DNA from: a virus
Lineage: Duplodnaviria > Caudoviricetes
Length of the DNA stretch: 64,000 bases
Direction: 5' to 3' (one strand)
Virus record (IMG/VR): IMGVR_UViG_3300013105_000843
Location: 1-64,000 of that record
Shown here piece after piece: positions 1 through 63,255 of this stretch. The translations under genes and the position numbers were made by a program. Below the pieces are notes generated by a model that saw only the letters and a list, made by a program, of their open reading frames with translations, searched no databases and was not told the origin of the DNA. Numbering within the stretch: the stretch's first letter is position 1; every line of letters starts with the position of its first letter.

Positions 1-673
1 TTACAGCAGCAGCTCGAGCCGGCCGGCCATCACCTGCTGCAGCAGCGCGCGCCGCCCAGTCCGGTGGTCGGTGACACCGTCGGCGCGGTAGGTACGCACC
101 TTGTCACCCCTCTGGCCCGTGCCCACGTGCGCCTTGCGCTGCTGGTTCTCGGCGCGCTGCGCGGCGCCGGCGTAGTGCGCCTGCACGCGCTCGCGTAGTG
201 TCGCCATCGCCACGCGTCGATTCGCTTCCTGCGTGCGTTCGACCTCTGCCTTTACCTCGATTCCAGTTGGCCGATGAATTAGGACTACACACGTTTCTCG
301 CTTATTGCGATTTTGCCCGCCCGGACCCTGACCGCGAGTGATGCGCGTGTGAATGTCGGTCTCGCGCAGCTCTGGCATGGCCGGCACGCTGCCTTCGAAG
401 ACGGCGACGGTAACGGTGGAGGTATGCACGCGGCCACGTCGTTCGGTGGGCGGGACGCGCTGGTGTCGATGGCCACCCGCCTCCTGGAGCAGCGGCATCA
501 GTATGGCCGCATCGCCTTCCAGGAGAAGGAGGTCAAAGATGGCTCCGCGCCTCGAGGGATGCCTTCACGCCATGGCGCGCGGCATAGGCTTGGTAGATGG
601 CTGCCTGGTCGTGAACCAGCAGCTTCGCATCGTCGCCGCCTTCCGCGGGACGGATTTCAATCGTAAGCTTCAT
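1..673 (-). CDS. RF1-like peptide chain release factor lacking domain 1, with a probable +1 programmed frameshift at 538-532 (about 223 aa)
   Basis: ATG at 673 gives MKLTIEIRPAEGGDDAKLL (RF domain 2 start) up to CAT CTT TGA C. The +1 frame continues DLLLLEG...QRVPPTERRGRVHTS (PxT motif)...GPGGQ and ends at TAA 1-3. Confidence 0.88.
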
Positions 674-850
674 GACCATCTCCTGTAAATGGTGAAAATA
701 GTATATGAAGTAATCACGAGCATGTCCAGCAATCGCGTAATGTGCAATGAAAAACCCCGCGTCGCGCGCGGGGTCGAGTAGCGGCCTGACGTGCTCACGC
801 GGCCGAGGACTGTGCTGCTTTCGTAGCCATGTGATGCAGTCCGCGCGGGC

Positions 851-1312
851 TCAGTGCTTCCCGGTGCTGCCGAAGCCGCCATCGCCGCGCTCGGTGACCG
901 TCGAGAACGTGTCGACGTACTTCAGCGCGACCTGGATAACGGGCTGGAACATCAGCTGCGCGATGCGTTCACCCGGCTGGATGACGTAGGGTTCCTCGCT
1001 GTCGTTGGCGAGGATGACCCCAATCTCGCCGTGGTAGTCGGCGTCGATGACCCCGACACCTTGTGCCACGCGAATGCCGTACTTCAGCGACAGCCCCGAG
1101 CGCGAGGCGACGATGGCCACGAGTCCGGGGTCCATCATGTTGATGGCGATGCCGGTTTTCACCAGCATGCGACCACCAGGGTTCAGGGTCACCGGCTCCT
1201 CGATGCACGCCCGCAGGTCCAGGGCCGCGGCGCCTTCCGTCGCGTAGCTCGGCAGTTCAATCTTGTCGCCCAGCAAGGGGCTAACCACTCGGGTTTCGAT
1301 GCGTCGATACAT
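851..1312 (-). CDS. dut: dUTP diphosphatase
   Basis: Motifs [38 protein letters not shown]. Confidence 0.97.
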
Positions 1313-1416
1313 GTCTGTTCCTCAATAAATGTGACTGGAGCTTCGTATAGCGCGCGGGCGCCCTACGAAGCTCCATTGACGCGTCGAGCACCCGGTCAGG
1401 CGCCCGGCATTCCGTT

Positions 1417-1740
1417 TTAGTGCGGAACCTTCGCCGCCGATGCCGAGGCCGGCGCCGTCGCGTGCGGCGGCACGATGACCGGATGCGGGGCGATGACCGG
1501 GCGCGCCGTGGCCTCCACCGGGTGTGCCGTCGGCGCCGCGCTCGCATGGGCGCTCGCCGTTTCCACGGGGTGCGCTGCCGCGGCGGCAACCGGATGCGCT
1601 GTCGCAACAGCGACCGGATGCGCCGCGACCACGGCGACGGGATGTGCGGCGACCACGGCGACCGGGAACGCGAATGCAGGGTGGGCGGCGACAGCTGCTG
1701 CTGCCGTCGCGAACAGGAGCGCGACTTTGATGTGCTTCAT
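1417..1740 (-). CDS. Small secreted protein with tandem AAHPVAVV-like repeats
   Basis: Signal peptide (MKHIK, hydrophobic core, AFA) followed by 8-aa AHPV repeats. Confidence 0.7.
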   Translation of the reverse strand: MKHIKVALLFATAAAAVAAHPAFAFPVAVVAAHPVAVVAAHPVAVATAHPVAAAAAHPVETASAHASAAPTAHPVEATARPVIAPHPVIVPPHATAPASASAAKVPH

Positions 1741-1826
1741 GAGTGAGCCTTCAGGTTAGAAATGATTCGGAACTGCATTCGCGTATAGCTCGGTATCGAG
1801 TGGTCCGACGCCAAATATCGTGCGCG

Positions 1827-2606
1827 TTATACCTCGGCCGGCTGCGGCGCTGCGAGCAGCGGTTGACCGTTCTGGATGGCGGCCAGTAGACGCGGCTCGT
1901 CGTGCATGAACGTCTGCACGCGGCGCGACAGCTCGGCCATGCTCTCCATCATGCGATGGAAGAACAGCGCCGCCTCCGGCGTGTACGGCATTTCCTTCAC
2001 ATCTCGCTCAGGCAACGAGAAAGCACACCAGCCATTGAGCAGGTTCAGCGGGTCAGACGGGTCACCGACATGCCCGGTCGACACGTAGTCGTATTCGACC
2101 TTGACCGCATCGCCGCGGCGGATAGTCCGTTTGTCCCATACACGCGCGCCAATCGTGAGCGAATAGCCGCCTCGTGCGGGGTTGGTCGCGTGATGGTCCC
2201 CGTACAGGTTTCTGTCGCACCAGCGCGCGTCCTTGAACGAGCCGTTCGGATAGATGGTGCCGTCCGGCGTCTCGGCGAATGACACATGAGACGCGACACT
2301 GTAGCGGATGACCCGTTCGGTCGTGACCTCTGGCGTCGCCCAGGCCTTGAGCAACGCCGTCAGCGCTTGCTTGAGTGTGTCCATCGTCTTGCTGTGCAGG
2401 CGCGTGTGCGCGCGGCCGACGCTCCACCGGACGCCGGTCGGATGCGTCAACGTGCGCGCCAGCTCGGCGAGATGGTCCGGCAGCGTCGCCATGAACTCGC
2501 CGTCTGCGTCGACCGACGCCGGGCACGCGAGCTTGACCTGTGCGTCTTCGCGCGAGGCCGAGGTCGGATTGTCGACGGCAACCTGGATGTCGGCCAGCTT
2601 GACCAT
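1827..2606 (-). CDS. Hypothetical phage-like protein
   Basis: 259-aa ORF with AGGAGA RBS, co-oriented with neighbours. Confidence 0.75.
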   Translation of the reverse strand: MVKLADIQVAVDNPTSASREDAQVKLACPASVDADGEFMATLPDHLAELARTLTHPTGVRWSVGRAHTRLHSKTMDTLKQALTALLKAWATPEVTTERVIRYSVASHVSFAETPDGTIYPNGSFKDARWCDRNLYGDHHATNPARGGYSLTIGARVWDKRTIRRGDAVKVEYDYVSTGHVGDPSDPLNLLNGWCAFSLPERDVKEMPYTPEAALFFHRMMESMAELSRRVQTFMHDEPRLLAAIQNGQPLLAAPQPAEV

Positions 2607-2628
2607 GGGCTTCTCCTGTTGTGCAGGC

Positions 2629-2847
2629 TTACTTGCCTGCGGTGTTGTTCAGGGCGGCGCGGCCGGCATCCGTGATGATGCCGCCGGCGGCCATGTATCC
2701 GAGGCGCTTGAGGACTTGCACCGTCGCCCTCGCACCGCCATAGGCGCTCCGGCCCGACAGGTGCGAGTCCCACGGAAGGCCCGCTTCGAGGTTGCGCAGA
2801 ACGGCTTTCTGCGCCTCGGTCAGCCTGTGCTTCTTCTCTGCAACCAT
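2629..2847 (-). CDS. Small hypothetical protein, possible winged helix
   Basis: LTEAQKAVL...LKRLGY...ITDAGRAAL pattern. Confidence 0.65.
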   Translation of the reverse strand: MVAEKKHRLTEAQKAVLRNLEAGLPWDSHLSGRSAYGGARATVQVLKRLGYMAAGGIITDAGRAALNNTAGK

Positions 2848-2858
2848 GTCTGCCTCGT

Positions 2859-3293
2859 TCAGTCGATGGGCTGGAGTTCAGCGGGTGCACGCCGCGCGGC
2901 GCCCTCGAGGGCAAGCTCAACGCTCGACACCACACGCACCAGCGGATGGTTTATCCAGGAGCCGATGGGCCGGCAGGACCTGGGCTCGATTACCACGCCA
3001 GGCATGACAACGAATACTGGAATACCTACGGCAATCGCGATTCCCGCCTCGAGATAGGCGCCCTTCAACGGGAAATCACCCTCCTCGGCATAGACAATCA
3101 CGCGCTCGGCGCTCTTCACTTCTGCCTCGATGCGCAACCACAGCTCGGCGAAGTCCGCGGTCTCACCCTCGCCTGCCTCGTCAATCCACGAAGAGACGAT
3201 GTGCCAGCCATCGACGTCGCGCAGGTGCTTCCAGCGCGCCGCCCGCTCTGGCAAGGCGCGGCTGGCGATATAGGTGCCGGCTCGCTTAGGCAT
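2859..3293 (-). CDS. Nucleoside 2-deoxyribosyltransferase-like protein
   Basis: YIASR N-terminus and GAYLEAGIAIAVGIPVFVV motif. Start at MPKR overlaps the upstream stop. Confidence 0.65.
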   Translation of the reverse strand: MPKRAGTYIASRALPERAARWKHLRDVDGWHIVSSWIDEAGEGETADFAELWLRIEAEVKSAERVIVYAEEGDFPLKGAYLEAGIAIAVGIPVFVVMPGVVIEPRSCRPIGSWINHPLVRVVSSVELALEGAARRAPAELQPID

Positions 3294-3738
3294 TCGCGAC
3301 CACCAGGTTAAGCAGGCGGTCGCGCGAAGACTCGAGGCTTTCTTCGTGCCCGAGATAGCCGATGTCGCCATGCAGGCGCACCGTGCTGCGCGAAGATGCG
3401 CCGTGCGTTGCCGCGCTCATGTCCTTGCCCGTCCTCTCACTCACCGGCACTGCGTCGCAAATCCACTTGGACAGTTCGGGGCGCAACGGGTCGACGTCGA
3501 CGTTGACGACCTGCACCACCCGGAATGTCCGCGTGCCGCGGTCGTTACCTGACATCGTCTGAACGCGCACCAGATACTCGGGCACTGGTCGCCGGTTCAG
3601 TTCCAGGAGTGTGCCGGCCGGCAGGAGCGCACGCATCGCGCGCAGCATCACGTCGGCGAGCGCAGCGCGCGCGGCGTCGGCTTCCTCGCGCTTGACCAGC
3701 GCGGCCTGGAAAATCTGTTGAGCTTCGGCGTTGTTCAT
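3286..3738 (-). CDS. Hypothetical protein
   Basis: 150-aa ORF overlapping both neighbours. Confidence 0.7.
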   Translation of the reverse strand: MNNAEAQQIFQAALVKREEADAARAALADVMLRAMRALLPAGTLLELNRRPVPEYLVRVQTMSGNDRGTRTFRVVQVVNVDVDPLRPELSKWICDAVPVSERTGKDMSAATHGASSRSTVRLHGDIGYLGHEESLESSRDRLLNLVVANA

Positions 3739-7484: not shown

Positions 7485-7571
7485 TGGTACCCAGAGAGGG
7501 GCTCGAACCCTCACGCCGTTGCCGGCACAGCGCCCTCAACGCTGCGCGTCTACCATTTCCGCCATCTGGGC
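7485..7571 (-). tRNA. tRNA-Leu(GAG)
   Basis: Cloverleaf, loop TT-GAG-GG, long V arm, encoded CCA. Confidence 0.93.
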
Positions 7572-9764: not shown

Positions 9765-10935
9765 ATGGTGTACAGGCCTGAGACTACAGCCTGACGCGTC
9801 ACGACTTTCGAGCGGATTATCACGCGGCTTGCGGCCGGCGTTCCCACCTTGTCCACCCCGTCAAACGAGGTATCGTGACATGGCTGCCGTTTCGGGTTTC
9901 CCCAGGGAAGGCGGTCTCCCTGTCGCGATGCACTATTCGATTCTCGTCCTACCGCCGACCTTGCGAGCCGTTCGAGGTTGCAGCCTCTACGTGCGGATTC
10001 CAATCAACATCCTTCACCTTGCGGGCGTCAGACGCCTGCCTTCACGTTTCCGTGGACAGGATTAAGCCATTTTCATGCATCACCGGACACGGCTTTGCGT
10101 TTTTTGACAACGAGGATTTGAACCCCACCGTCGGCTTAAGAGGCCGATGCTCTACCGAATTGAGCTAATTGCATCCACTGCCACGAGCGTGTCCAAGAGC
10201 TTCACCACCTTTTGAGCGGCAAAATACTCCTCGCGGCATGTCTTTCGCCTGCCGGCTACTCAACGGTCCTTCTGGACTCCGTGCCATTTCTGGCCCGAAC
10301 CCCATTGAACTGCGCTGTCGCCATTGAGGGCATCTACGACAACAGCGCTACCCTTTCCCGTACAGGTTCGCATGTTGGTTAGGCTGGACCGCGGCACCAC
10401 CCGCTGCTGTTCGCCACCTCGGGTTCCCGTCCTTGCGGACGGCCCGGCAGGTAACGTTCTTCCCCAGCCACATGCTTCTCCCTTATCGCCACCGCTTTGG
10501 TCAGTGACGCGCTCCTTTCGGAGCCGGGGAGGCTTGCATGGATTGACCGCACCGGTCCCCGAAGAGACCGGCATGGCGCGAGTTAGTGGACTACCTCGCT
10601 TTGACCGCATTGCTGCGGCTGTCCTCCCCATGCGGAGTTGTCAGTGTCTCGCCGCGCAACGTGCAAGCACGCTACCCGGCCAGCATCGACGCGTTGCGGA
10701 GCCTTTCGGACTGGGCGCCTTACGGAACCCCACCGCATACGAGCTGACGTCGTCGAATCCTTGTTCTGCCAGACCGTCTCCGGCCGCACGCTCAACCTTC
10801 ACCGCTGTCCTGGTGCGCTGTCTTTCGACACGGGCCTCCTTTCGGTTAACCCAAGCGTGACGGGTGTTGTCTGCCGGGCCAGAACCCGACGGCGCAGCTG
10901 AAGCATCTGACGATGCACAATCGGGCACCGCCCGA
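9765..10935 (-). ncRNA. Very large structured ncRNA, GOLLD-like, with an embedded tRNA-Lys(CTT)-like element (10105-10174)
   Basis: About 1.15 kb with no credible ORF, dense GNRA/UUCG hairpins and its own promoter. The 3' part resembles recalled GOLLD motifs. Boundaries are approximate. Confidence 0.65.
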
Positions 10936-13662: not shown

Positions 13663-13778
13663 TGGAGGAGACGGCAGGGCTCGAACCTGCGACCACGCGC
13701 CAAACCAAGTGCGGACGTTAGCGCCGAAGCGCAGGGCGCCGCACAGGGGCCGTGCTCTACCGACTGAGCTACGTCTCC
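13663..13778 (-). ncRNA. tRNA-like RNA whose anticodon arm is replaced by a long UUCG-capped stem
   Basis: Perfect acceptor, D arm, T arm and UCCA end. Insert GTGCGG...GCGC-TTCG-GCGC...CCGCAC. Confidence 0.75.
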
Positions 13779-16931: not shown

Positions 16932-16947
16932 ACAGGAAAACACATTG

Positions 16948-17020
16948 CATGGCAGGAGGGCATCGAACCCCCAACCTTCGGTTTTGGAGACCGGCGCTCT
17001 GCCAGTTGAGCTACTGCCAT
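16948..17020 (-). tRNA. tRNA-Trp(CCA), CCA end not encoded
   Basis: Loop CT-CCA-AA. Confidence 0.92.
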
Positions 17021-17580: not shown

Positions 17581-17656
17581 TGGCCGCCGACGAAGGGAAT
17601 CGAACCCTCATGGAACGGATAGACAATCCGCTGACCTACCAATGGCCCACGTCGGC
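17581..17656 (-). tRNA. tRNA-Asp(GTC)
   Basis: Loop TT-GTC-TA, one extra G before CCA. Confidence 0.85.
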
Positions 17657-17691
17657 AAAATCTGCACTACTAATAAAGCAATTTTCAATGC

Positions 17692-17984: not shown

Positions 17985-18089
17985 CGCTGCCCGCTGGATT
18001 TGAACCAGCGCTGACGGGCGCCCGCCACCTGGAATGGATACCAGTCTCCCTCTGCAATGAGGTGCTCTACCAGCCTGAGCTAGAGCAGC
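17985..18089 (-). ncRNA. tRNA-like RNA with 6-nt anticodon loop and two-hairpin variable region
   Basis: Canonical D and T arms, CCTC-ATTGCA-GAGG, extra hairpins, no CCA. Confidence 0.6.
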
Positions 18090-18875: not shown

Positions 18876-20711
18876 TCAACTCTCGTTTTCGAAGGTGTCG
18901 GCTAGCTCGGTGAGCACCACTTCCAGCGCCTCCGGCCCCACCTCGAACGGGCTCTTCACAATCTTCAGCGGCCCGCGCGCCGCGTCACCGGTCATCGTCG
19001 CGACCGGCTGGGCAGTGCTCGGCTGCTCAACCTGCGGCGCGCTCGCCAGCACAGCGGCCGCCTGTGCCGCCCCTCCCTGCGGCGCCGGCTGACCGGCGGG
19101 GGGCGCGAGCTTGAGCATCGGGCGCGCTTCGAAGTCGCGGTCGGCGTAGTGTTCGGCGATGCGCTCGCGCTTTTTCGGGAACGCCAGCTTGACGCGGCAA
19201 ATCGGGTAGTCGCCCTTGAGCTTGAAGAAGCCATGGAGGTCCTTGAGCCGCTGCAGCTGGACCGGCATGACCGCGCGCTCGGTCTGCACCTGCTCGTTCA
19301 GGCCGGCGGAGCCTCCCGATTCCGATGAGGACTCGCCGCGCATCATGCGCGATACCTCCTTGTCTCCAATATAGGTGGAGATGTATTCGGAGGTCTCCGG
19401 GTCCGAGCAGCGCAGCACCAGCCACGATGACAGGCACGACAGGATGGTCTGAGCGCCCTTCTCGCCGTAGCGGTCCTGGAGTTGCGAAATCGCCTGCAGG
19501 CCAATGAGCAGGCACCCGCCCTTCTTGCGGGCCTTGGTCGCGAAGGCCTCGATGGTCTGCACCTTGCCGATGGACGCGAACTCGTCAATGATGAGCCACA
19601 CCCGACGCCCGCTATTCTCTGGCAGCGACAGGATGGTCCGCGCCGCGACGTCGAGCGCGCACGAAATCATGTTGCGCAGGGAGTCGAGCTGGTCGTCGCG
19701 GTACGTGAGGAACAGGAATCCGGGTTTGCCCGCACGGATGAACTTCGACACCGAGAACGGGTCGTCGCGGTCTTCCAGGTAGGCGTAGGTCGCCAGGTAG
19801 TTCGACGCGATGGTGCGAATCGAGCCGAAGGTGCGCTCGGAGACGAGCTGCGCGGCCGCCGGCGTGCCGGCCAGAAACTGCGCCAGCTCTTCAATGGGCG
19901 CGGCCTGCACGTAATAGAGCAGCTCCTTGACGGACAGGCGCTTCAGCTCATCGAGCTTGCGCAGCACCGAGGTCACGAACGTCTGGGCATACCCGTTCCA
20001 CTCCCGAGCTTCACCCTCGCCGTCGGGGACCATCGACTTGGACATCGCCTCGTCGTGCCCCGGACCGGAAATCTCGGCCGTCGGCGACCAGGGGGCACAG
20101 CGCTCGTCGAACGGGTTCAGGATGCGGTCACGCCCCTCGCGGTAGTAGCGCGAAGCAAACTCGCCGCCTGAGTCGACGACGAGCGCGATGTCGCCGCGCG
20201 CCTCGATATCGTCGAGCAGGCGCGTGATGGCGACCGACTTGCCGGTGCCAGTCGAACCCACGACCAGGAAGTGATAGGGCTCGGCGCTGCGCGGGATATT
20301 CACGCCGGCAATGGCCAGGCTTTCCTCGAAGTCAGACTTCGGCAGCGCCGACGCTGTCTTTCGATTGACGTCCGAGGGCGTGCTGACCGTGGCACCCCGG
20401 CGCAACTTCTCGCGCGGGCGCAGCCGGCGCGCCAGCAGGTTCAGGACAGGGGCGATGCCGGCGCCGAGCGCGAGCCAGGCCACGGTGACCCCGGTAGGGA
20501 GCGTGCCCGGCAATGCGTGCAAGCCCAGCAGGGCCACGCCGATGGCCGCCGCGTAGAGCATCAGGCGGGTCAGCTTCGCTGCGAGCGGAAACCAGTTCAC
20601 CCAGCGTGCGGCAAGCTTGCGCCAGACCGTAAAGAGGGAATACAGGGCAAAGCCGAACAGCACGAGCTGCGCGGGCTCGCTATCCAGCCAGGAAAGGATG
20701 GCTTCGTTCAT
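18876..20711 (-). CDS. traD: Type IV secretion coupling protein (TraD/TrwB family)
   Basis: N-terminal TMs, HFLVVGSTGTGKS (Walker A), LNPFDERC, WLIIDEFASIG (Walker B), GLQAISQLQDRYG. Confidence 0.9.
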   Translation of the reverse strand: MNEAILSWLDSEPAQLVLFGFALYSLFTVWRKLAARWVNWFPLAAKLTRLMLYAAAIGVALLGLHALPGTLPTGVTVAWLALGAGIAPVLNLLARRLRPREKLRRGATVSTPSDVNRKTASALPKSDFEESLAIAGVNIPRSAEPYHFLVVGSTGTGKSVAITRLLDDIEARGDIALVVDSGGEFASRYYREGRDRILNPFDERCAPWSPTAEISGPGHDEAMSKSMVPDGEGEAREWNGYAQTFVTSVLRKLDELKRLSVKELLYYVQAAPIEELAQFLAGTPAAAQLVSERTFGSIRTIASNYLATYAYLEDRDDPFSVSKFIRAGKPGFLFLTYRDDQLDSLRNMISCALDVAARTILSLPENSGRRVWLIIDEFASIGKVQTIEAFATKARKKGGCLLIGLQAISQLQDRYGEKGAQTILSCLSSWLVLRCSDPETSEYISTYIGDKEVSRMMRGESSSESGGSAGLNEQVQTERAVMPVQLQRLKDLHGFFKLKGDYPICRVKLAFPKKRERIAEHYADRDFEARPMLKLAPPAGQPAPQGGAAQAAAVLASAPQVEQPSTAQPVATMTGDAARGPLKIVKSPFEVGPEALEVVLTELADTFENES

Positions 20712-20850
20712 TTTGGTCCAAGCACTGAAAGGTCGCGTAGTGCGACCGCCGGACCGGTATAGGCAGATGAGCGAGGGATGGCGCGCGACGCGCCGCGCAA
20801 ATGAAAACGCCACCCGCGAGAGGGTGGCGCATGCGTGGTGGCGCGCTGGC

Positions 20851-21609
20851 TTAGAAGACGCCCGAAATCACGCGCACCAGGCCGCTGCGCAGCGGGGTCA
20901 CCGCTTCGCCGAAGTCGAGGTTGACCTTGTTCGCGACGCTCATCACGCGCGTCTGGTAGGTGCGGTAATCGCTATCCTCGTTGTACGTCACCGTCGTGCC
21001 GCCGCTGTTGCCCTGGTGCAGGTTGTGCACCGAGCTTTCGTGGCTCTTCACACCGCTGCGCTGGCGTTCGCGAATCATCACGTCCGTGATGGCCGTGTAG
21101 TAGACGTCCTTGACGGCCGCGTTGGCGACCATCTCGGCCAGGCCGGTGACGAGCCCCGCGGCGAGAATCGGGCCGCCGTGGGTTGCGCCCATGCCCACCG
21201 CGGCGCCTGCCCCCAGGAACGCGGCGCCGAGCGGCGCGCCGTAGCCGCCGAAGGCCATCCGCGCGGCCGACGGCGTCACCTTGCCGACCTGCAGGATGTT
21301 CGCCTGCAGGATGAACTGCGCCTGGTCCGGGTCGCTGACGACGCGGTAGCCTTTGGCAGCGACGGCGGCCGACACGTCAGACGCGATATCGAAATCCGGC
21401 TTGTCGGAGGTATTGCGGACCTGCACGTAGATGGTACGTTTCGCGGCCGCGGTCGGCTCGAGGAAGATGGTATCGGACATCCGCGTCTGGACATCCAGGT
21501 TGCGTTTTTCAATCGCTATCTGTGTGGCTGCGCAGCCGGACAGCAGGCTGGTCTAACCGATGGCGGCCAGGACGGTTGCGACGAAAATGGTCTTCGCGTG
21601 AAATTTCAT
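20851..21609 (-). pseudogene. traT: TraT surface-exclusion lipoprotein with an in-frame TAG at codon 19
   Basis: MKFHAKTIFVATVLAAIG*TSLLSGC (lipobox)...RNLDVQTRMSDTIFLEP...TRVMSVANKVNLDF. Confidence 0.85.
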
Positions 21610-22578: not shown

Positions 22579-24549
<1,971 letters not shown>

Positions 24550-24559
24550 GGAAACGCTC

Positions 24560-24922
24560 ATGACGACGACAACGACGGGCATCGAATTCAAGCGCTTCTA
24601 TGGCGACCGCGCGTTCTGGCCGCAGGGCGGCAAAACCTATCACGACGACACGCTGTTCGTTGTAGACGGCCGGCCGTTGCGGGAGGAGGAAGACCCCGCG
24701 GACATTCCCGACCGGGTCATTCTCGAGATTCGCAGTGGATTCGTCATCGGGATTCCGCAGGGCGTCGCAGGCGGCGTCGAAGAGATGGACCTGGGTGAGT
24801 ATTTCCTGCTTTGGCAGAAGACCCAGTCGACCGTAACGCTCGTGCTCGAGTGTCCGCGTGACGCCCTCGACCAGGTCATCGCCGTCGCGACGCGCGCGGG
24901 CGCCAGGGTGCCTCAAGCGTAA
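24560..24922 (+). CDS. Hypothetical protein
   Basis: AAGGA RBS directly after parE. Confidence 0.7.
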   Translation: MTTTTTGIEFKRFYGDRAFWPQGGKTYHDDTLFVVDGRPLREEEDPADIPDRVILEIRSGFVIGIPQGVAGGVEEMDLGEYFLLWQKTQSTVTLVLECPRDALDQVIAVATRAGARVPQA

Positions 24923-24994
24923 CCGCCGTCAGGAACGTGGTGGGTGCCCGCCGGGGCTATACGCAAGCAGGACAACCAACCACGGAGTGGAACC

Positions 24995-25534
24995 ATGAAT
25001 ACGACTGTTGTGCGCAGCAAGTTTGCCCAAGTGAAAGCAGGTAGCGCTGTCGTGATGTCGGATGCAGAGCTGGACTGGCTCATCGACAACGACATGCATC
25101 CTGCGGACATGGTGTCGATTCGCAACCCCAACCAGTTGGGCACGCTCGATACGTACATGGTGGCGATGACAAGCCACCCGGTGATGCTGGCTGAACGCGA
25201 AAAGCAGGACCTTCTGACGTCGGCGATGCGTGCCTCGGTGTACGAGACCAATGCAGTCTGGGACGAGCCGAAAGGCGCCTCCTCGCCGCGCGGCTGGTAC
25301 TGGCCGGAAAGGAGCACGATTCACGGCAAAACGCCCTGCGCCGGGCACTACCTGGACTACGGCCCGGGCTCCCGCCATGACGACAGGCAAACGGTCGAAC
25401 CCGGCACCATCCATTGCATTGTCGTTGCGAAGGATACGGGTGGCGCAGTCAGCTGGCGCTATGTCGAAACGGTCGAAGAAGCTCGCACCTGGATTGAAAC
25501 CGAAGCGGCCAAGTTTGGCCATCCGCGTACCTGA
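24995..25534 (+). CDS. Hypothetical protein
   Basis: GGAG RBS, co-oriented. Confidence 0.7.
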   Translation: MNTTVVRSKFAQVKAGSAVVMSDAELDWLIDNDMHPADMVSIRNPNQLGTLDTYMVAMTSHPVMLAEREKQDLLTSAMRASVYETNAVWDEPKGASSPRGWYWPERSTIHGKTPCAGHYLDYGPGSRHDDRQTVEPGTIHCIVVAKDTGGAVSWRYVETVEEARTWIETEAAKFGHPRT

Positions 25535-25584
25535 TTCACCCTCAAAACGGCTCCTCGTGGGCCGTTTGTTCGCGCACACCACCC

Positions 25585-26133
25585 ATGCAATTGAATACGA
25601 ACAGCAAAACGATACCCGATTGCGAGCAGCGCATCGTTCGCGTACTGCCGCGCCTCGACGCCGTGCATCGTGTGCCGGACAGCGGCGAGGCGTGCATCTC
25701 CATCACGAACCCGAGGCAATCGCCAGCATCACTCGAGGACGGATGGGCGGAGGTGCTGCGTCTGGGCTTCCACGATACCGACCGTCGCGGCGGCGGGTTC
25801 ACGGAGATGACGCTCGAGCACGCGATGGACGTGCTGGCGTTTGGCCGCCGGCATGCTGCGGCGCCGCTCACGGTGCATTGTCAGTTTGGGCAGTCTCGCT
25901 CGGTCGCTGTGGGCGTCTTCCTCGCGGCCTGGCTCGGCCGTCCGGTGCAGCTCACGCATGACGTGCTCGCGCCGAACCCGTGGGTGGTGCGCCAGTTGCG
26001 GCGCGCCGCCCTGCTCTGCGCGCTGCGCTGGTGCGACGGACGGCTGCTCATGGTCGCCCTTGTCAGCCCGCTCGCCCCTCGATTCCGGTACGGGATGATG
26101 CCCAAGGCCATCGCCGATACCTACCTGCCTTAA
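25585..26133 (+). CDS. Protein-tyrosine/dual-specificity phosphatase-like protein
   Basis: VHCQFGQSRS (CX5R), LRLGFHD, PNPWV. Confidence 0.8.
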   Translation: MQLNTNSKTIPDCEQRIVRVLPRLDAVHRVPDSGEACISITNPRQSPASLEDGWAEVLRLGFHDTDRRGGGFTEMTLEHAMDVLAFGRRHAAAPLTVHCQFGQSRSVAVGVFLAAWLGRPVQLTHDVLAPNPWVVRQLRRAALLCALRWCDGRLLMVALVSPLAPRFRYGMMPKAIADTYLP

Positions 26134-26144
26134 CGGAGACTTCG

Positions 26145-26531
26145 ATGACTGATGCAACCAAGCCCGCAGACGCGGCGCTGTCCACCGATGACGCGGCGCG
26201 CCGCGAAGCCCTGCGCGAACGCATGCGCAAGGGGCAGGAAAAGATGCGTGAGATGCGTGAAGCCGGCTGGAAGCCGGTGCATCGCACTCCCGTCGAACAG
26301 GCACAGGCCAACCCGAACTCGCTCAAGGCCGCCATCAAGGCGTTCTGCTGGACGTGTGTGGGCGAAGACGCTGACCCGGGCGCGAAATTCCGCGTGCGCG
26401 ACTGCACGGTGACGCGCTGTGCGTTGCACCCGCATCGGCCGTGGCAGAACGTCAAGGGCGGCCACGGGGCGACGGGCGAGGACGGTGAAGTGCTCGCCAC
26501 CGCTGATTCCGAAGACACGAGCGAGGACTGA
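26145..26531 (+). CDS. Hypothetical Cys-rich protein
   Basis: AIKAFCWTC...VRDCTVTRCALHPHR. Confidence 0.7.
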   Translation: MTDATKPADAALSTDDAARREALRERMRKGQEKMREMREAGWKPVHRTPVEQAQANPNSLKAAIKAFCWTCVGEDADPGAKFRVRDCTVTRCALHPHRPWQNVKGGHGATGEDGEVLATADSEDTSED

Positions 26532-26534
26532 ACG

Positions 26535-26984
26535 ATGAGCGAACGTATTCGTGCCGCGCTGGCGGCTGCCCCCAGACGTGGTCAGCTAGTGCGTCATACC
26601 GACGGCGGCATCTACCGGTTCGTCGGACTTTCACAGAGTACCGAAGACCAATCGCTGTGGCATCTCTACGACCACGTATGGCCGTTCGACGCCTCGCTCA
26701 TCCCGTGGTCGCGACCATCGGAACAGTGGGAGTCGCGTTTTGTCGTCATCAGCGAGAGGGACCTCGCCGAGGCCATGAAGCAGGACCGCTTTCAGGCCCA
26801 GGTAGCCATCCAGGAAGCAAAGGCGGCACGGCGCGCGAAAGCATCAGCACCACCCGAAATCGATTACGGCACCGCCCCACTGATGCGGGTGATTAACCGG
26901 CGTACCGGCGAAGTAATTCTGGACTCAGAGCTGGCAGGCGATGGTCCGGGTATGGAAACTCAGCGGGGAATCAAGCATGACTGA
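26535..26984 (+). CDS. DUF1653-like protein
   Basis: [12 protein letters not shown]...STED...WSRP. Confidence 0.6.
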
Positions 26985-29409
26985 AGTTCTCAATTCCGTG
27001 GACACCCACACCGAGACCGGCGTGGAAATGGGCGCCTACGCAGAGCGGGCCTACCTCGACTACGCGATGAGCGTCGTGATGGGCCGTGCGCTGCCGCTGG
27101 GCGCCGACGGCCAGAAGCCCGTGCAGCGCCGCATTCTTTACGACATGGTGCGCCTGGGGCTCCACGACAAGGCGAAGCCGGTGAAGTGCGCACGCTTCGT
27201 CGGCGACATCCTCGGCAAGTATCACCCGCATGGCGACTCGTCGGTGTACGACGCGGCCGTGCGCATGGCGCAGAATTTCTCGCTGCGCTATCCGCTTATC
27301 GACGGTCAGGGCAATTTCGGTTCGCGTGATGGCGACTCGCCGGCGGCGATGCGCTACACCGAAGCGCGCCTGACGCCCATCGCCGAGCTGCTGCTGGGCG
27401 AGTTGGACATGGGCACCGTCGACTTCGTGTCGAACTACGACGGCACGCTGACGGAGCCGCGCGTGCTGCCCGCACGCCTGCCGGTGCTGCTGCTCAATGG
27501 CGCCTCTGGCATTGCCGTGGGCATGGCGACCGAAATTCCGTCACACAACCTGACGGAGGTGGCGCTCGCCTGCGAGCACCTGATTCAGCATCCCGACGCG
27601 ACGCTCGAGGACCTGCTCGCCATTGTGCCCGGCCCCGACTTCCCGGGCGGCGCGCAGGTCATCTCCTCGCCGGAGGATGTCGCGAAGGTCTATGCGAGTG
27701 GTCGCGGTCCGCTGCGCACCCGCGCGCGCTGGACTGTCGAGCAGCTCGCGCGCGGCCAGTGGCAGATTGCGATTACCGAGTTGCCGCCCGATACGTCGAC
27801 GGCCAAGGTGATGGGCGAAATCGAGGCGCTGACCAACCCGCAAATCAAGGCGGGCAAGAAGAGCCTCACGCAGGACCAGGTCAACCTGAAGGCGCTCGTG
27901 CTGTCGGTGGTCGACCACATCTCGGACGACTCGGATGGCCAGCATCCGGTGCGCCTCGTCATCGAGCCGCGTTCGTCGCGCCAAAGCCCCGACGAAGTGA
28001 TGCAGGTGCTGCTCGCGCACACCAGCCTCGAGTTGAACTACGCAATGAACCTGGTCACCATCGGCCAGGATGGCAAGCCGCAGCAGAAAGGTCTGCTGCA
28101 GGTGCTCCGCGAGTGGGTCGCGTTCCGCTTTGAGACGGTGACGCGTCGCACGACGCACCGCCTCGAGCAGGTGAAGACACGCAGCCACATCCTCGAAGGC
28201 CGGCTGGCGGTGTTTCTGCACATTGACGAGGTCATCCGGATTATCCGCGGCGCCGAGGACCCGAAGGCCGAGCTGACGAAGACGCTCGGGCTCACGGACG
28301 CGCAGGCAACCGACATTCTCGAAATCCGCCTACGGCAGCTCGCGAACCTCGAGCGGGTCAAGCTCGAAGCCGAGCTGGCCGAGCTGGCCAAGGAGGCGGC
28401 ATTCCTTGAGGGACTGCTCGCCGACGGCGACAAGATGACCCGCCAGGTGCTGCTCGAACTCAAGGCCGACCGGGAAAGGTTCGGTGACGCGCGCCGCACG
28501 CTGATTGAAGCTGCGGGCCGGGTGACGACGGGCGCAGTGGCCGCGGCCGCCGACGACCCGGTAACGCTCATCGTTTCGAAGCAGGGCTGGCTGCGTGCGC
28601 GCACCGGGCACAAGGTCGACCTGTCCGCGCTGGGCTGGAAGGCGGGCGATGACGCGCTCGCGATTCTGGAGGCGCGCACCAACCAGACCATCGTGGCGCT
28701 TGACACCACGGGACGGGCCTACAATCTGTCGGCCGCGGCGTTCCCGACCGGGCGCGGCGATGGCGTGCCGGCCTCTTCTCTCATCGAGCTGAATGGCAAC
28801 ACCCTCGCACGCGTGTTCGTGCTGGATGCCGCCGCGCACTACCTTCTCAGCCACTCGGGCGGCTATGGCTTCCTGTGCCCGGGCAGCGAGCTGCAGACGC
28901 GCCAGAAGGCCGGCAAGGCCCTGGTGACACTCGAGAAGGGTGAGCAGCTGCTGCCGCCGGTGGCGGTGGCGCTGCCGGTCGAGGGTGACTCCGCCGGCGA
29001 GGCGGTATTCGCCTCGAGCGCGGGCAAGCTGCTGGTCTGCCCGCTCGCCGAAATGAAGGTGATGGGCAAAGGGCGCGGTGTGCAACTGATGACGCTCAAC
29101 GGCAAGGACCGCCTGACCGCCGGTGCGGCATTCGAGCGGCCCGTCGACACGCTGACACTGACCGTGCCGGCCGGAAAGGTGGGCGAGCTGCAGCTCGCGC
29201 CGGCCGACGTCGAGCGGCATCGCGGCAAGCGGGCGCGCGCAGGCGCGGTGCTGCCGCACAAGGCTGTGGTGAGCAACATCACGGCGACTCTCACCGATAC
29301 GTCGGCAACGGCCGGCGCCACACGCGAAGCGGCAGCAACCAAGCCAACGGCAGCGACGCAGGTCCAAGCGCCTCCCGCATTCGACTTCGGTGATTCGGAC
29401 GAGATTTGA
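26977..29409 (+). CDS. parC: DNA topoisomerase IV subunit A
   Basis: [27 protein letters not shown] (catalytic Tyr), C-terminal beta-pinwheel repeats. Confidence 0.95.
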
Positions 29410-62984: not shown

Positions 62985-63255
62985 ACTTTGGGCGACCGGG
63001 CAATCGCGGCCCGGTGGCAGTTTAGGCAACTGCCAGATAACGGCTGTCGTTAGCAGTTATTTTTTGCGTCTTTCGCCGCGCGAAACGCGCCGCCGGGCAT
63101 GCGCCTGCCCTCGTTGCCGCCTTTGCCTTCATGCGCTGTCAAAACCTGTCAGCCCCATCACATGCACACCTGAGACAGATGCGCAGGTGGTGGAGCTGGC
63201 GAGGAACTCGAACCCCACTTCCAACACACGTCAACTCTGGAGGAGTTACAACGAT
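62985..63255 (-). ncRNA. ssrA: Circularly permuted two-piece tmRNA
   Basis: Acceptor piece ending GGTTCGAG...CAGCTCCACCA (63188) precedes the coding piece starting GGGGCTG (63156). Tag ANDSRYLAVA* at 63054-63022. Confidence 0.9.

Follow-up and report, generated by a model that had tools for sequence, protein, structure and literature searches.

A prfB-like +1 frameshift probably gates a short RF1-type release factor gene on a mobile element and may sense RF2 in trans

A release factor gene that is divided between two reading frames lies on the minus strand of the window, by which we mean the whole stretch of DNA analyzed here (64,000 nucleotides, positions 1 to 64,000 of the IMG/VR virus record IMGVR_UViG_3300013105_000843). 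The reading that we consider likely is that a 223-residue RF1-type factor is made from this gene through a +1 frameshift of the kind known from prfB, that the UGA at the shift site acts as a gate sensing RF2 in trans, and that the factor adds UAA/UAG termination or rescue capacity.

The coordinates of the gene and of the other features of the window are listed in Table 1. As read from the sequence, the gene starts with the ATG at 673-671 on the minus strand, and its product begins with MKLT(I/L)EIR, the common start of the homologues. A dUTPase gene ends further upstream with a terminator (775-753) that precedes a promoter-like site, one of two found by the consensus scan where 0.2 would be expected. 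Frame 0 closes with the codons CGG AGC CAT CTT followed by TGA C, in which CTT (538-536) is the slippery leucine codon. The hexamer CGGAGC is separated from CTT by a spacer of 3 nt (CAT), and a second Shine-Dalgarno-like element, GAGG, is located at 553-550 on the minus strand. The first codon of the +1 frame is GAC (Asp, 534-532), and the 177 codons of this second open reading frame contain QRVPPTE..HTS, with PPT at 453-445, as well as GGQ at 321-313. Joining the two frames gives the 223 residues of P0001, in which the junction reads ...ARSHL/DLLLLEGD and PPT and GGQ occupy residues 74-76 and 118-120, respectively. The open reading frame listed at 1-498 represents only the 3' part of the gene, and the downstream side of the gene is outside the record, which begins at its stop codon. 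A preliminary description of this DNA had proposed the split gene, the end of frame 0 and the +1 frame with PPT and GGQ, and all of these, coordinates included, can be found in the sequence; the junction peptide that it predicted, SHLDLLLL, is likewise obtained when the joined frames are translated. The heptamer alone is not unusual, with six copies of CTTTGAC in the window versus 6.4 expected. What goes beyond chance is that CTTTGAC sits exactly where two RF1-like halves meet and that it is kept in relatives. RNA near the shift site folds no better than shuffled sequences (z -0.37), and of the leucine codons only about 14% are CTT in the element, compared with about 19% across the family.

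Table 1 Features of the window discussed in the text, with their positions, strand and the basis on which they were assigned.
Feature	Position	Strand	Basis or remark
Promoter-like TGGACA-17-TATACT	700-728	-	Consensus scan, 10/12 matches; upstream of the release factor gene; predicted
Ribosome-binding site GGAG	680-683	-	6-nt spacer to ATG 673; sequence reading
ORF1, frame 0, codons 1-46	536-673	-	Begins RF domain 2; EIRPAEGGDDA helix tip
Internal Shine-Dalgarno-like GGAG	543-546	-	4-bp core, four bases from CTT; weaker than that of many relatives
Shift heptamer CTT-TGA-C	532-538	-	Frame-0 stop TGA at 535-533; T535 predicted to be skipped
ORF2, +1 frame, codons 47-223	4-534	-	Rest of domain 2/4 and domain 3
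TAA stop of the full-length gene	1-3	-	The public record starts with these bases
33 tRNA genes, all 20 amino acids	7485-18183	-	ARAGORN and Rfam
tRNA-Leu(GAG)	7485-7571	-	Reads CUU; ARAGORN/Rfam
tRNA-Trp(CCA)	16947-17020	-	ARAGORN/Rfam
tRNA-Asp(GUC)	17581-17657	-	Reads the first +1 codon; ARAGORN/Rfam
GOLLD RNA, full-length	9775-10239	-	RF02032, 189.6 bits, gathering score 150; inside the tRNA array
Permuted two-piece tmRNA	63022-63253	-	RF04321, Rfam 73.8 bits
Genes for TraD/TrwB-type coupling protein, TraT, GyrB- and GyrA-like proteins	18876-21480; 22579-29409	-; +	

P0001 is an RF1-type class-I release factor that has domains 2/4 and 3 and is without domain 1. Pfam recognizes PCRF (PF03462, 59 bits) at residues 3-89 and RF-1 (PF00472, 80 bits) at residues 101-204. 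The RF1 model of NCBIfam runs across the junction in one stretch, in which its positions 106-334 (of 347) are aligned with residues 3-222, and it scores 180 bits versus 93 bits for RF2, which bears out the earlier proposal of an RF1-type factor with PxT and GGQ. Owing to the absence of domain 1 (the first ~105 residues), this score falls far short of the equivalog cut-off of 400 bits. Among PDB chains, RF1 is matched with up to 145 bits and RF2 with 63 bits; here too the alignment continues across the junction, with the QRVPPTERRGRVHTST decoding loop of P0001 opposite QRVPVTESQGRVHTST of RF1 in the solved structures. Domain 2 is shortened relative to RF1. An AlphaFold model (mean pLDDT 86) places the junction within a beta-hairpin (strands 37-43 and 46-52, pLDDT 87-94), and the best Foldseek matches of this model are to ribosome-bound RF1 (TM 0.88, rmsd 2.3 A), with RF2 at TM 0.84 and PrfH at TM 0.67. 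In structures of RF1, the Gln and the Thr of the PxT loop, together with the Thr of HTS, specify UAA/UAG, and the reading of UGA is the task of RF2. The Gln, the PxT Thr (QRVPPTE) and HTS are all kept in P0001, and SPF is absent. On motifs alone, a specificity for UAA and UAG is predicted, from which a factor without domain 1 and with a shortened domain 2 could differ.

Other identities were considered for P0001 and rejected. It is not a prfA equivalog, given the missing domain 1 and the 180 bits set against a cut-off of 400. A comparison with PrfH had been made in the preliminary description; this was right about the missing domain 1 but goes no further, as the PrfH model gives 65.6 bits against a cut-off of 166.65 and covers only the GGQ domain (residues 97-197), and no RtcB (PF01139) was found in the 129.6-kb record, which ends at the gene's stop with the downstream neighbor outside. 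ArfB, which consists of a GGQ domain and a basic C-terminal tail and cannot read codons, was rejected on its model score (34.6 bits against a cut-off of 100, residues 101-132 only), and the codon-reading PCRF domain is present in P0001.

A protein search places the gene in a large family, with its nearest matches, at 60-90% identity, coming from Burkholderia, Paraburkholderia, Novimethylophilus and metagenomes. Almost all of these have been called as truncated proteins that cover 56-91% of the query, which is consistent with a shared interruption, as this is what one would produce. Relatives were also read as DNA, taken from a species-representative genome (L003), viral contigs and metagenomes, by scoring the frames of the N- and C-terminal parts; the counts obtained in this way are exclusive of ~60 truncated near relatives known from the protein search. 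A search of the viral contigs with a single protein returned nothing, and alignment-based scans found the loci. Megablast of the first 3 kb against a phage collection gave no match, tblastn against the phage collection gave only RF1 genes at <41% identity, and among 400 sampled genomes of the class the gene was present only in one genome, which was already known.

A frameshift is needed to read through 29 of the ~178 family genes available as DNA. All 29 of these shifts are +1 and none is -1, and frame 0 ends in CTT-TGA in 25 cases and in CTT-TAG in four. GGAGG or GGGG is found three bases before CTT in most of the frameshifted genes (e.g., CGG AGG GGT CTT TGA C); a few, namely L134, L155 and L083, have no Shine-Dalgarno-like element. 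The shift sites are at codon 37, codon 47 (the window, L003, L014, L086-L088 and L115) or codon 53 (L083). That the prfB-style cassette of the window lies inside domain 2 (codon 46/47), and not near codon 25, had been pointed out before and is correct.

The family is also interrupted by a second device. In 137 other members an in-frame stop, nearly always TGA, is found instead of the frameshift. For the first set of genes in which no frameshift is needed, an in-frame stop is present in 136 of 146 (TGA in 133 and TAG in three), and the open members, only ten of the 146, are placed mostly at the base of the tree. These in-frame stops fall at codon 36 or 46/47, which are Gly-Trp positions (e.g., RKG-TGA-TTRL), and the frameshift sites come one codon after the same two Trp positions. 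Seemingly uninterrupted database proteins with a Trp at the gate (P0046, P0051 and P0063, among others) may be code-4 gene calls of the TGA. In the tree, the codon-47 clade is nested among genes with an in-frame TGA at codon 46. The two sites and the nesting describe a family that is stop-gated by two interchangeable devices, and UGA gating is a trait of this family.

Some members vary the gate. A TAG gate is found with a frameshift in L083, L140, L192 and L195 and in frame in L011, L067 and L142, with the loop unchanged, and several TAG-gated members are carried on low-GC contigs (25-37% GC). Two in-frame TGA codons, i.e., a double gate (e.g., codons 43 and 51), occur in L099, L101, L112, L120, L123 and L148. 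On plasmid 2 of Variovorax sp. SRS16 (L170, NZ_LR594667.1, 5971-6675), a 49%-identical homologue is annotated in RefSeq as two genes, with the names 'hypothetical protein' and 'peptide chain release factor-like protein', and a SecB-like gene lies directly downstream.

The relationship between the gate and the decoding loop can be used to ask which factor reads the gate. The Q..PPT loop is present in 137 of 146 TGA-gated members, four of five TAG-gated members and eight of nine open members. This independence of the loop from the gate codon favors control in trans and disfavors self-recognition. The preliminary description had offered two alternatives, a factor that senses RF2 and a factor with altered specificity; the former is now favored because the decoding loop is RF1-type whatever the gate codon, whereas the latter loses ground with a loop that is the same across gates. 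Given that the frameshift is real, the sequences make it quite likely that RF2 is sensed in trans and that the gene is not autoregulated. Autoregulation as in prfB would require that the factor has acquired recognition of UGA and limits its own synthesis at CUU-UGA. This is unlikely, although the cassette is nearly identical to that of prfB, whose known purpose is self-regulation, UGA is overwhelmingly the gate of the family, and a domain 2 shortened with respect to RF1 could decode differently. Weighing against it are the retention of all RF1 determinants in a protein that has no SPF, the occurrence of the same loop in TGA-gated, TAG-gated and open members, and a sequence and fold that are nearer to RF1 than to RF2. 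The four CTT-TAG members may represent self-regulation for an RF1-type factor, and the family may not follow one rule.

From the sequences we infer that frameshifting takes place and depends on RF2, which codons the product recognizes and what its physiological role is, and sensing of RF2 in trans would proceed as follows. After translation of 46 codons, the ribosome would pause while peptidyl-tRNA-Leu is paired with CUU and the A site holds UGA. Action of RF2 at this point would release the 46-residue peptide. If UGA is decoded slowly, the tRNA could re-pair on UUU, aided by pairing of the internal GGAG with 16S rRNA, and with GAC then read, the full factor would be made. The RF1-type loop predicts recognition of UAA/UAG, so that UGA would be read by the host RF2 and not by the product. 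As a trans gate, it would raise its output when RF2-dependent termination at UGA lags behind competing tRNAs, and the factor probably adds termination capacity at UAA/UAG, or rescue capacity, to the kit of the element, i.e., its 33 tRNAs and tmRNA. The logic of this circuit is incomplete, as an RF1-type product cannot itself relieve a deficit in UGA termination.

Another possible role for the gate is that of a plain attenuator, by which the amount of a factor that may be toxic would be held low and constant and nothing would be sensed. Release factors that are overproduced do lower fitness (PMC12421855), and readthrough and frameshifting both cut yield. A weak start site would suffice for this purpose, however, and what is seen is a very diverged family in which two different recoding devices have both settled on one stop codon and on the same pair of positions. 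This convergence suggests that competition at the stop codon itself matters and leaves the attenuator as a very improbable account.

The case for a frameshift that is under selection can be made from the closest relatives. The clade of the window consists of five genes (the window, L003 and L086-L088), all with the codon-47 site, and has a support of 99-100 in the tree. Uninterrupted homologues lacking CTT-TGA had been named beforehand as the sign of a chance indel; the heptamer is in fact invariant in all seven codon-47 members (the clade plus L014 and L115), between which synonymous divergence ranges from dS 0.45 to >2 (saturation). The Shine-Dalgarno-like region of the clade members reads CGG GGC yAC. 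In comparisons with the clade members, the upstream frame has a dN/dS of 0.08-0.37 and the downstream frame one of 0.10-0.29. Both halves are kept coding, each in its own frame, under purifying selection. A constraint that places all frameshifted genes in a single clade is rejected (-197 log-likelihood units, AU p 1.2e-6), so that the shift cassette arose at least twice in the family; a single origin is not rejected for the codon-47 site (p 0.17) and is marginal for the codon-37 site (p 0.03). One complete host genome contains a homologue that is 69% identical over the whole protein, with CGG GGC CAC CTT TGA C in its gene. The prfB of this same host has CGG AGG TAT CTT TGA C at codon 26, a canonical cassette, which means that the host machinery there uses the +1 mechanism. 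The frameshift is very probably programmed.

Set against these findings, a gene that functions with no frameshift fares no better than the attenuator and, if anything, slightly worse. Its products would be a 46-residue peptide and/or a 165-residue protein from ATG 498, and the upstream frame would be a relic. Such a reading agrees with public annotation, where only the downstream part is called (in relatives and Variovorax plasmids), and with the presence of an ATG with a long open frame at 498. The upstream frame, however, is under purifying selection in its own frame at the dN/dS given above, and RF domain 2 is completed by the helix and strands that it encodes. The starts called for relatives are not the same from one to the next and lie in the wrong frame upstream, and 29 genes share the exact CTT-stop junction. 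A pseudogene or an assembly error, that is, a chance one-base indel in a decaying gene, is scarcely credible even though single-base indels are common and the record starts right at the gene. Purifying selection on both halves excludes it, independent assemblies that are 69-75% identical have the same heptamer at the same position, the gene is not disrupted anywhere else, -1 cases are absent from ~178 genes, and more than one origin is supported.

The element on which the gene is carried is classed by IMG/VR as a provirus, and its record is 129.6 kb long, starting exactly at the stop codon of the release factor gene. The record is in the standard code, and its commonest stop is TGA (85 of 152 crude ORFs). 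HK97 capsid, TerL, VirB4 and TrwC were sought in the 129.6-kb record and none was found; genes of TraD/TrwB, TraT and gyrase type are present (Table 1). The element may have been mislabeled as a 'provirus' and could be conjugative. A tmRNA gives the element its own ribosome-rescue RNA beside the release factor. Weaker Rfam tRNA-like matches that ARAGORN does not call are found at 13666-13778, 17985-18089 and 10104-10173, the last of these embedded in the GOLLD RNA.

The tRNA genes are of interest for the gate. Within 3-4 kb of the gene, tRNA genes are found for 97 of 136 readthrough-gated members, six of 15 frameshift-gated members and none of the ten open members. ARAGORN and Rfam found no suppressor tRNA in the 33-tRNA array of the window, and a suppressor tRNA is present in only one of the family flanks. 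A coding-density test for recoding of TGA assigns the standard code to the window, with 95% coverage, and is a crude test for the flanks of relatives. The tRNA array may be linked to the frameshift. In L014, ARAGORN finds a tRNA with a four-base anticodon (acca) at 750-845, in a 22-tRNA array beside a frameshift-gated homologue, and coverage of the flanks by long ORFs is 39% in code 11 vs 87% in code 4; this phage may read TGA as sense.

RNA repair enzymes are a further kind of neighbor. In L003, the homologue at 3001-3670 is preceded, 70 nt upstream, by a gene at 720-2933 (+) for an RNA-repair enzyme of 737 residues, in which a P-loop kinase (AAA_33), a metallophosphatase and an RNA ligase of T4 Rnl1 type are fused. 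Related ligase genes are near the homologue in L029, L033, L080 and L170, and no Pnkp/RNA-ligase neighbor of the L003 kind was found in the window's record. The pairing of an RNA ligase with a short release factor in L003 recalls PrfH-RtcB.

A broader view can be taken in which the whole short-RF1 family would be a sensor-effector of the contest between tRNA and RF2 at UGA, with each of its two forms of gate having taken the place of the other at the same two sites. Readthrough with tRNA-Trp would open the in-frame UGA gate, and slippage and tRNA-Asp would open the CUU-UGA gate. Production of the factor would then follow when the cell is flooded by the tRNA array of the element or when RF2 falters, and the factor would form the catalytic arm of a termination/rescue kit together with the tRNAs, the tmRNA and possibly an ArfA-like partner. 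This extension is tentative, and we regard it as somewhat doubtful. If true, it would amount to a new principle, in which release factor homeostasis is imposed in trans by a mobile element.

The more immediate implications concern recoding and annotation. Within the literature searched, frameshifting at SD-CUU-UGA-C is described for prfB only, and here it is predicted on an RF1-type factor and in another domain. Across hundreds of genes on mobile elements, the cassette and an in-frame UGA gate can stand in for each other, and this offers a second natural system in which to study how +1 frameshifting works and evolves. Sensing of RF2 in trans would have one type of release factor regulated by the activity of the other type, and the setting hints at a role for short release factors in the tRNA islands of phages and plasmids. 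A systematic annotation error is also exposed, as RefSeq divides these genes in two, under the names 'hypothetical protein' and 'release factor-like protein'.

Several known systems can be compared with the gene described here. A literature search, with most subscription journals outside its reach, found no published account of this frameshift-gated RF1-type device. In a GeneTack survey, prfB was the only release factor cluster (PMC3711429), and a 2025 survey of 8,164 prfB motifs came across no gate with TAG and considered it unlikely that prfA is subject to programmed frameshifting (PMC12421855). A 2016 review of recoding treated readthrough of an early in-frame UGA in RF2 genes, as well as its UAG/RF1 counterpart, as unknown in bacteria (PMC5009743). 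The only case cited by the same review is an eRF1 gene carried by a giant amoeba virus, whose expression requires readthrough and, independently, frameshifting. This is also a virus-borne release factor that depends on stop-codon recoding, but it is of eukaryote type and from a eukaryotic virus, and its protein and signals are unrelated. RF1 genes have been reported in the code-change module of the TGA-recoded 'Jade' phages, where the module is stated to use the standard code (10.1101/2021.08.26.457843), and in tRNA arrays of Mycobacterium (PMC5966550). These genes too are on mobile elements beside tRNA genes and have been proposed to aid termination when tRNA supply changes; the reports describe no gene interruption, frameshift or UGA gate.

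Among bacterial release factors, RF1 (prfA) is the best match of P0001 in sequence and fold, and the two have in common the PCRF and RF-1 domains, QRVPxTE...HTS and GGQ; RF1 differs in its domain 1 of ~105 residues and its fuller domain 2, which are missing or shortened in P0001. PrfH, which works with RtcB2 when damaged ribosomes are rescued, is likewise a short class-I factor without domain 1, but the RF1 stop-codon loop is intact in P0001 and the fold match to PrfH is weaker (TM 0.67). The closest parallel for the gate is prfB, also a class-I release factor gene, which has the same heptamer, the same direction of shift and an internal Shine-Dalgarno-like element in the same register. The site in prfB is at about codon 26, in domain 1, whereas here it is at codon 46/47, in domain 2, with domain 1 absent. 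A CTT-TAG gate is found in some of the relatives described here and never among the 8,164 prfB motifs (PMC12421855), and the cassette arose more than once in the short-RF1 family. In prfB, control is exerted by the product on itself, while the sequences examined here point to an RF1-type product whose UGA gate would be read by another factor, i.e., to control in trans.
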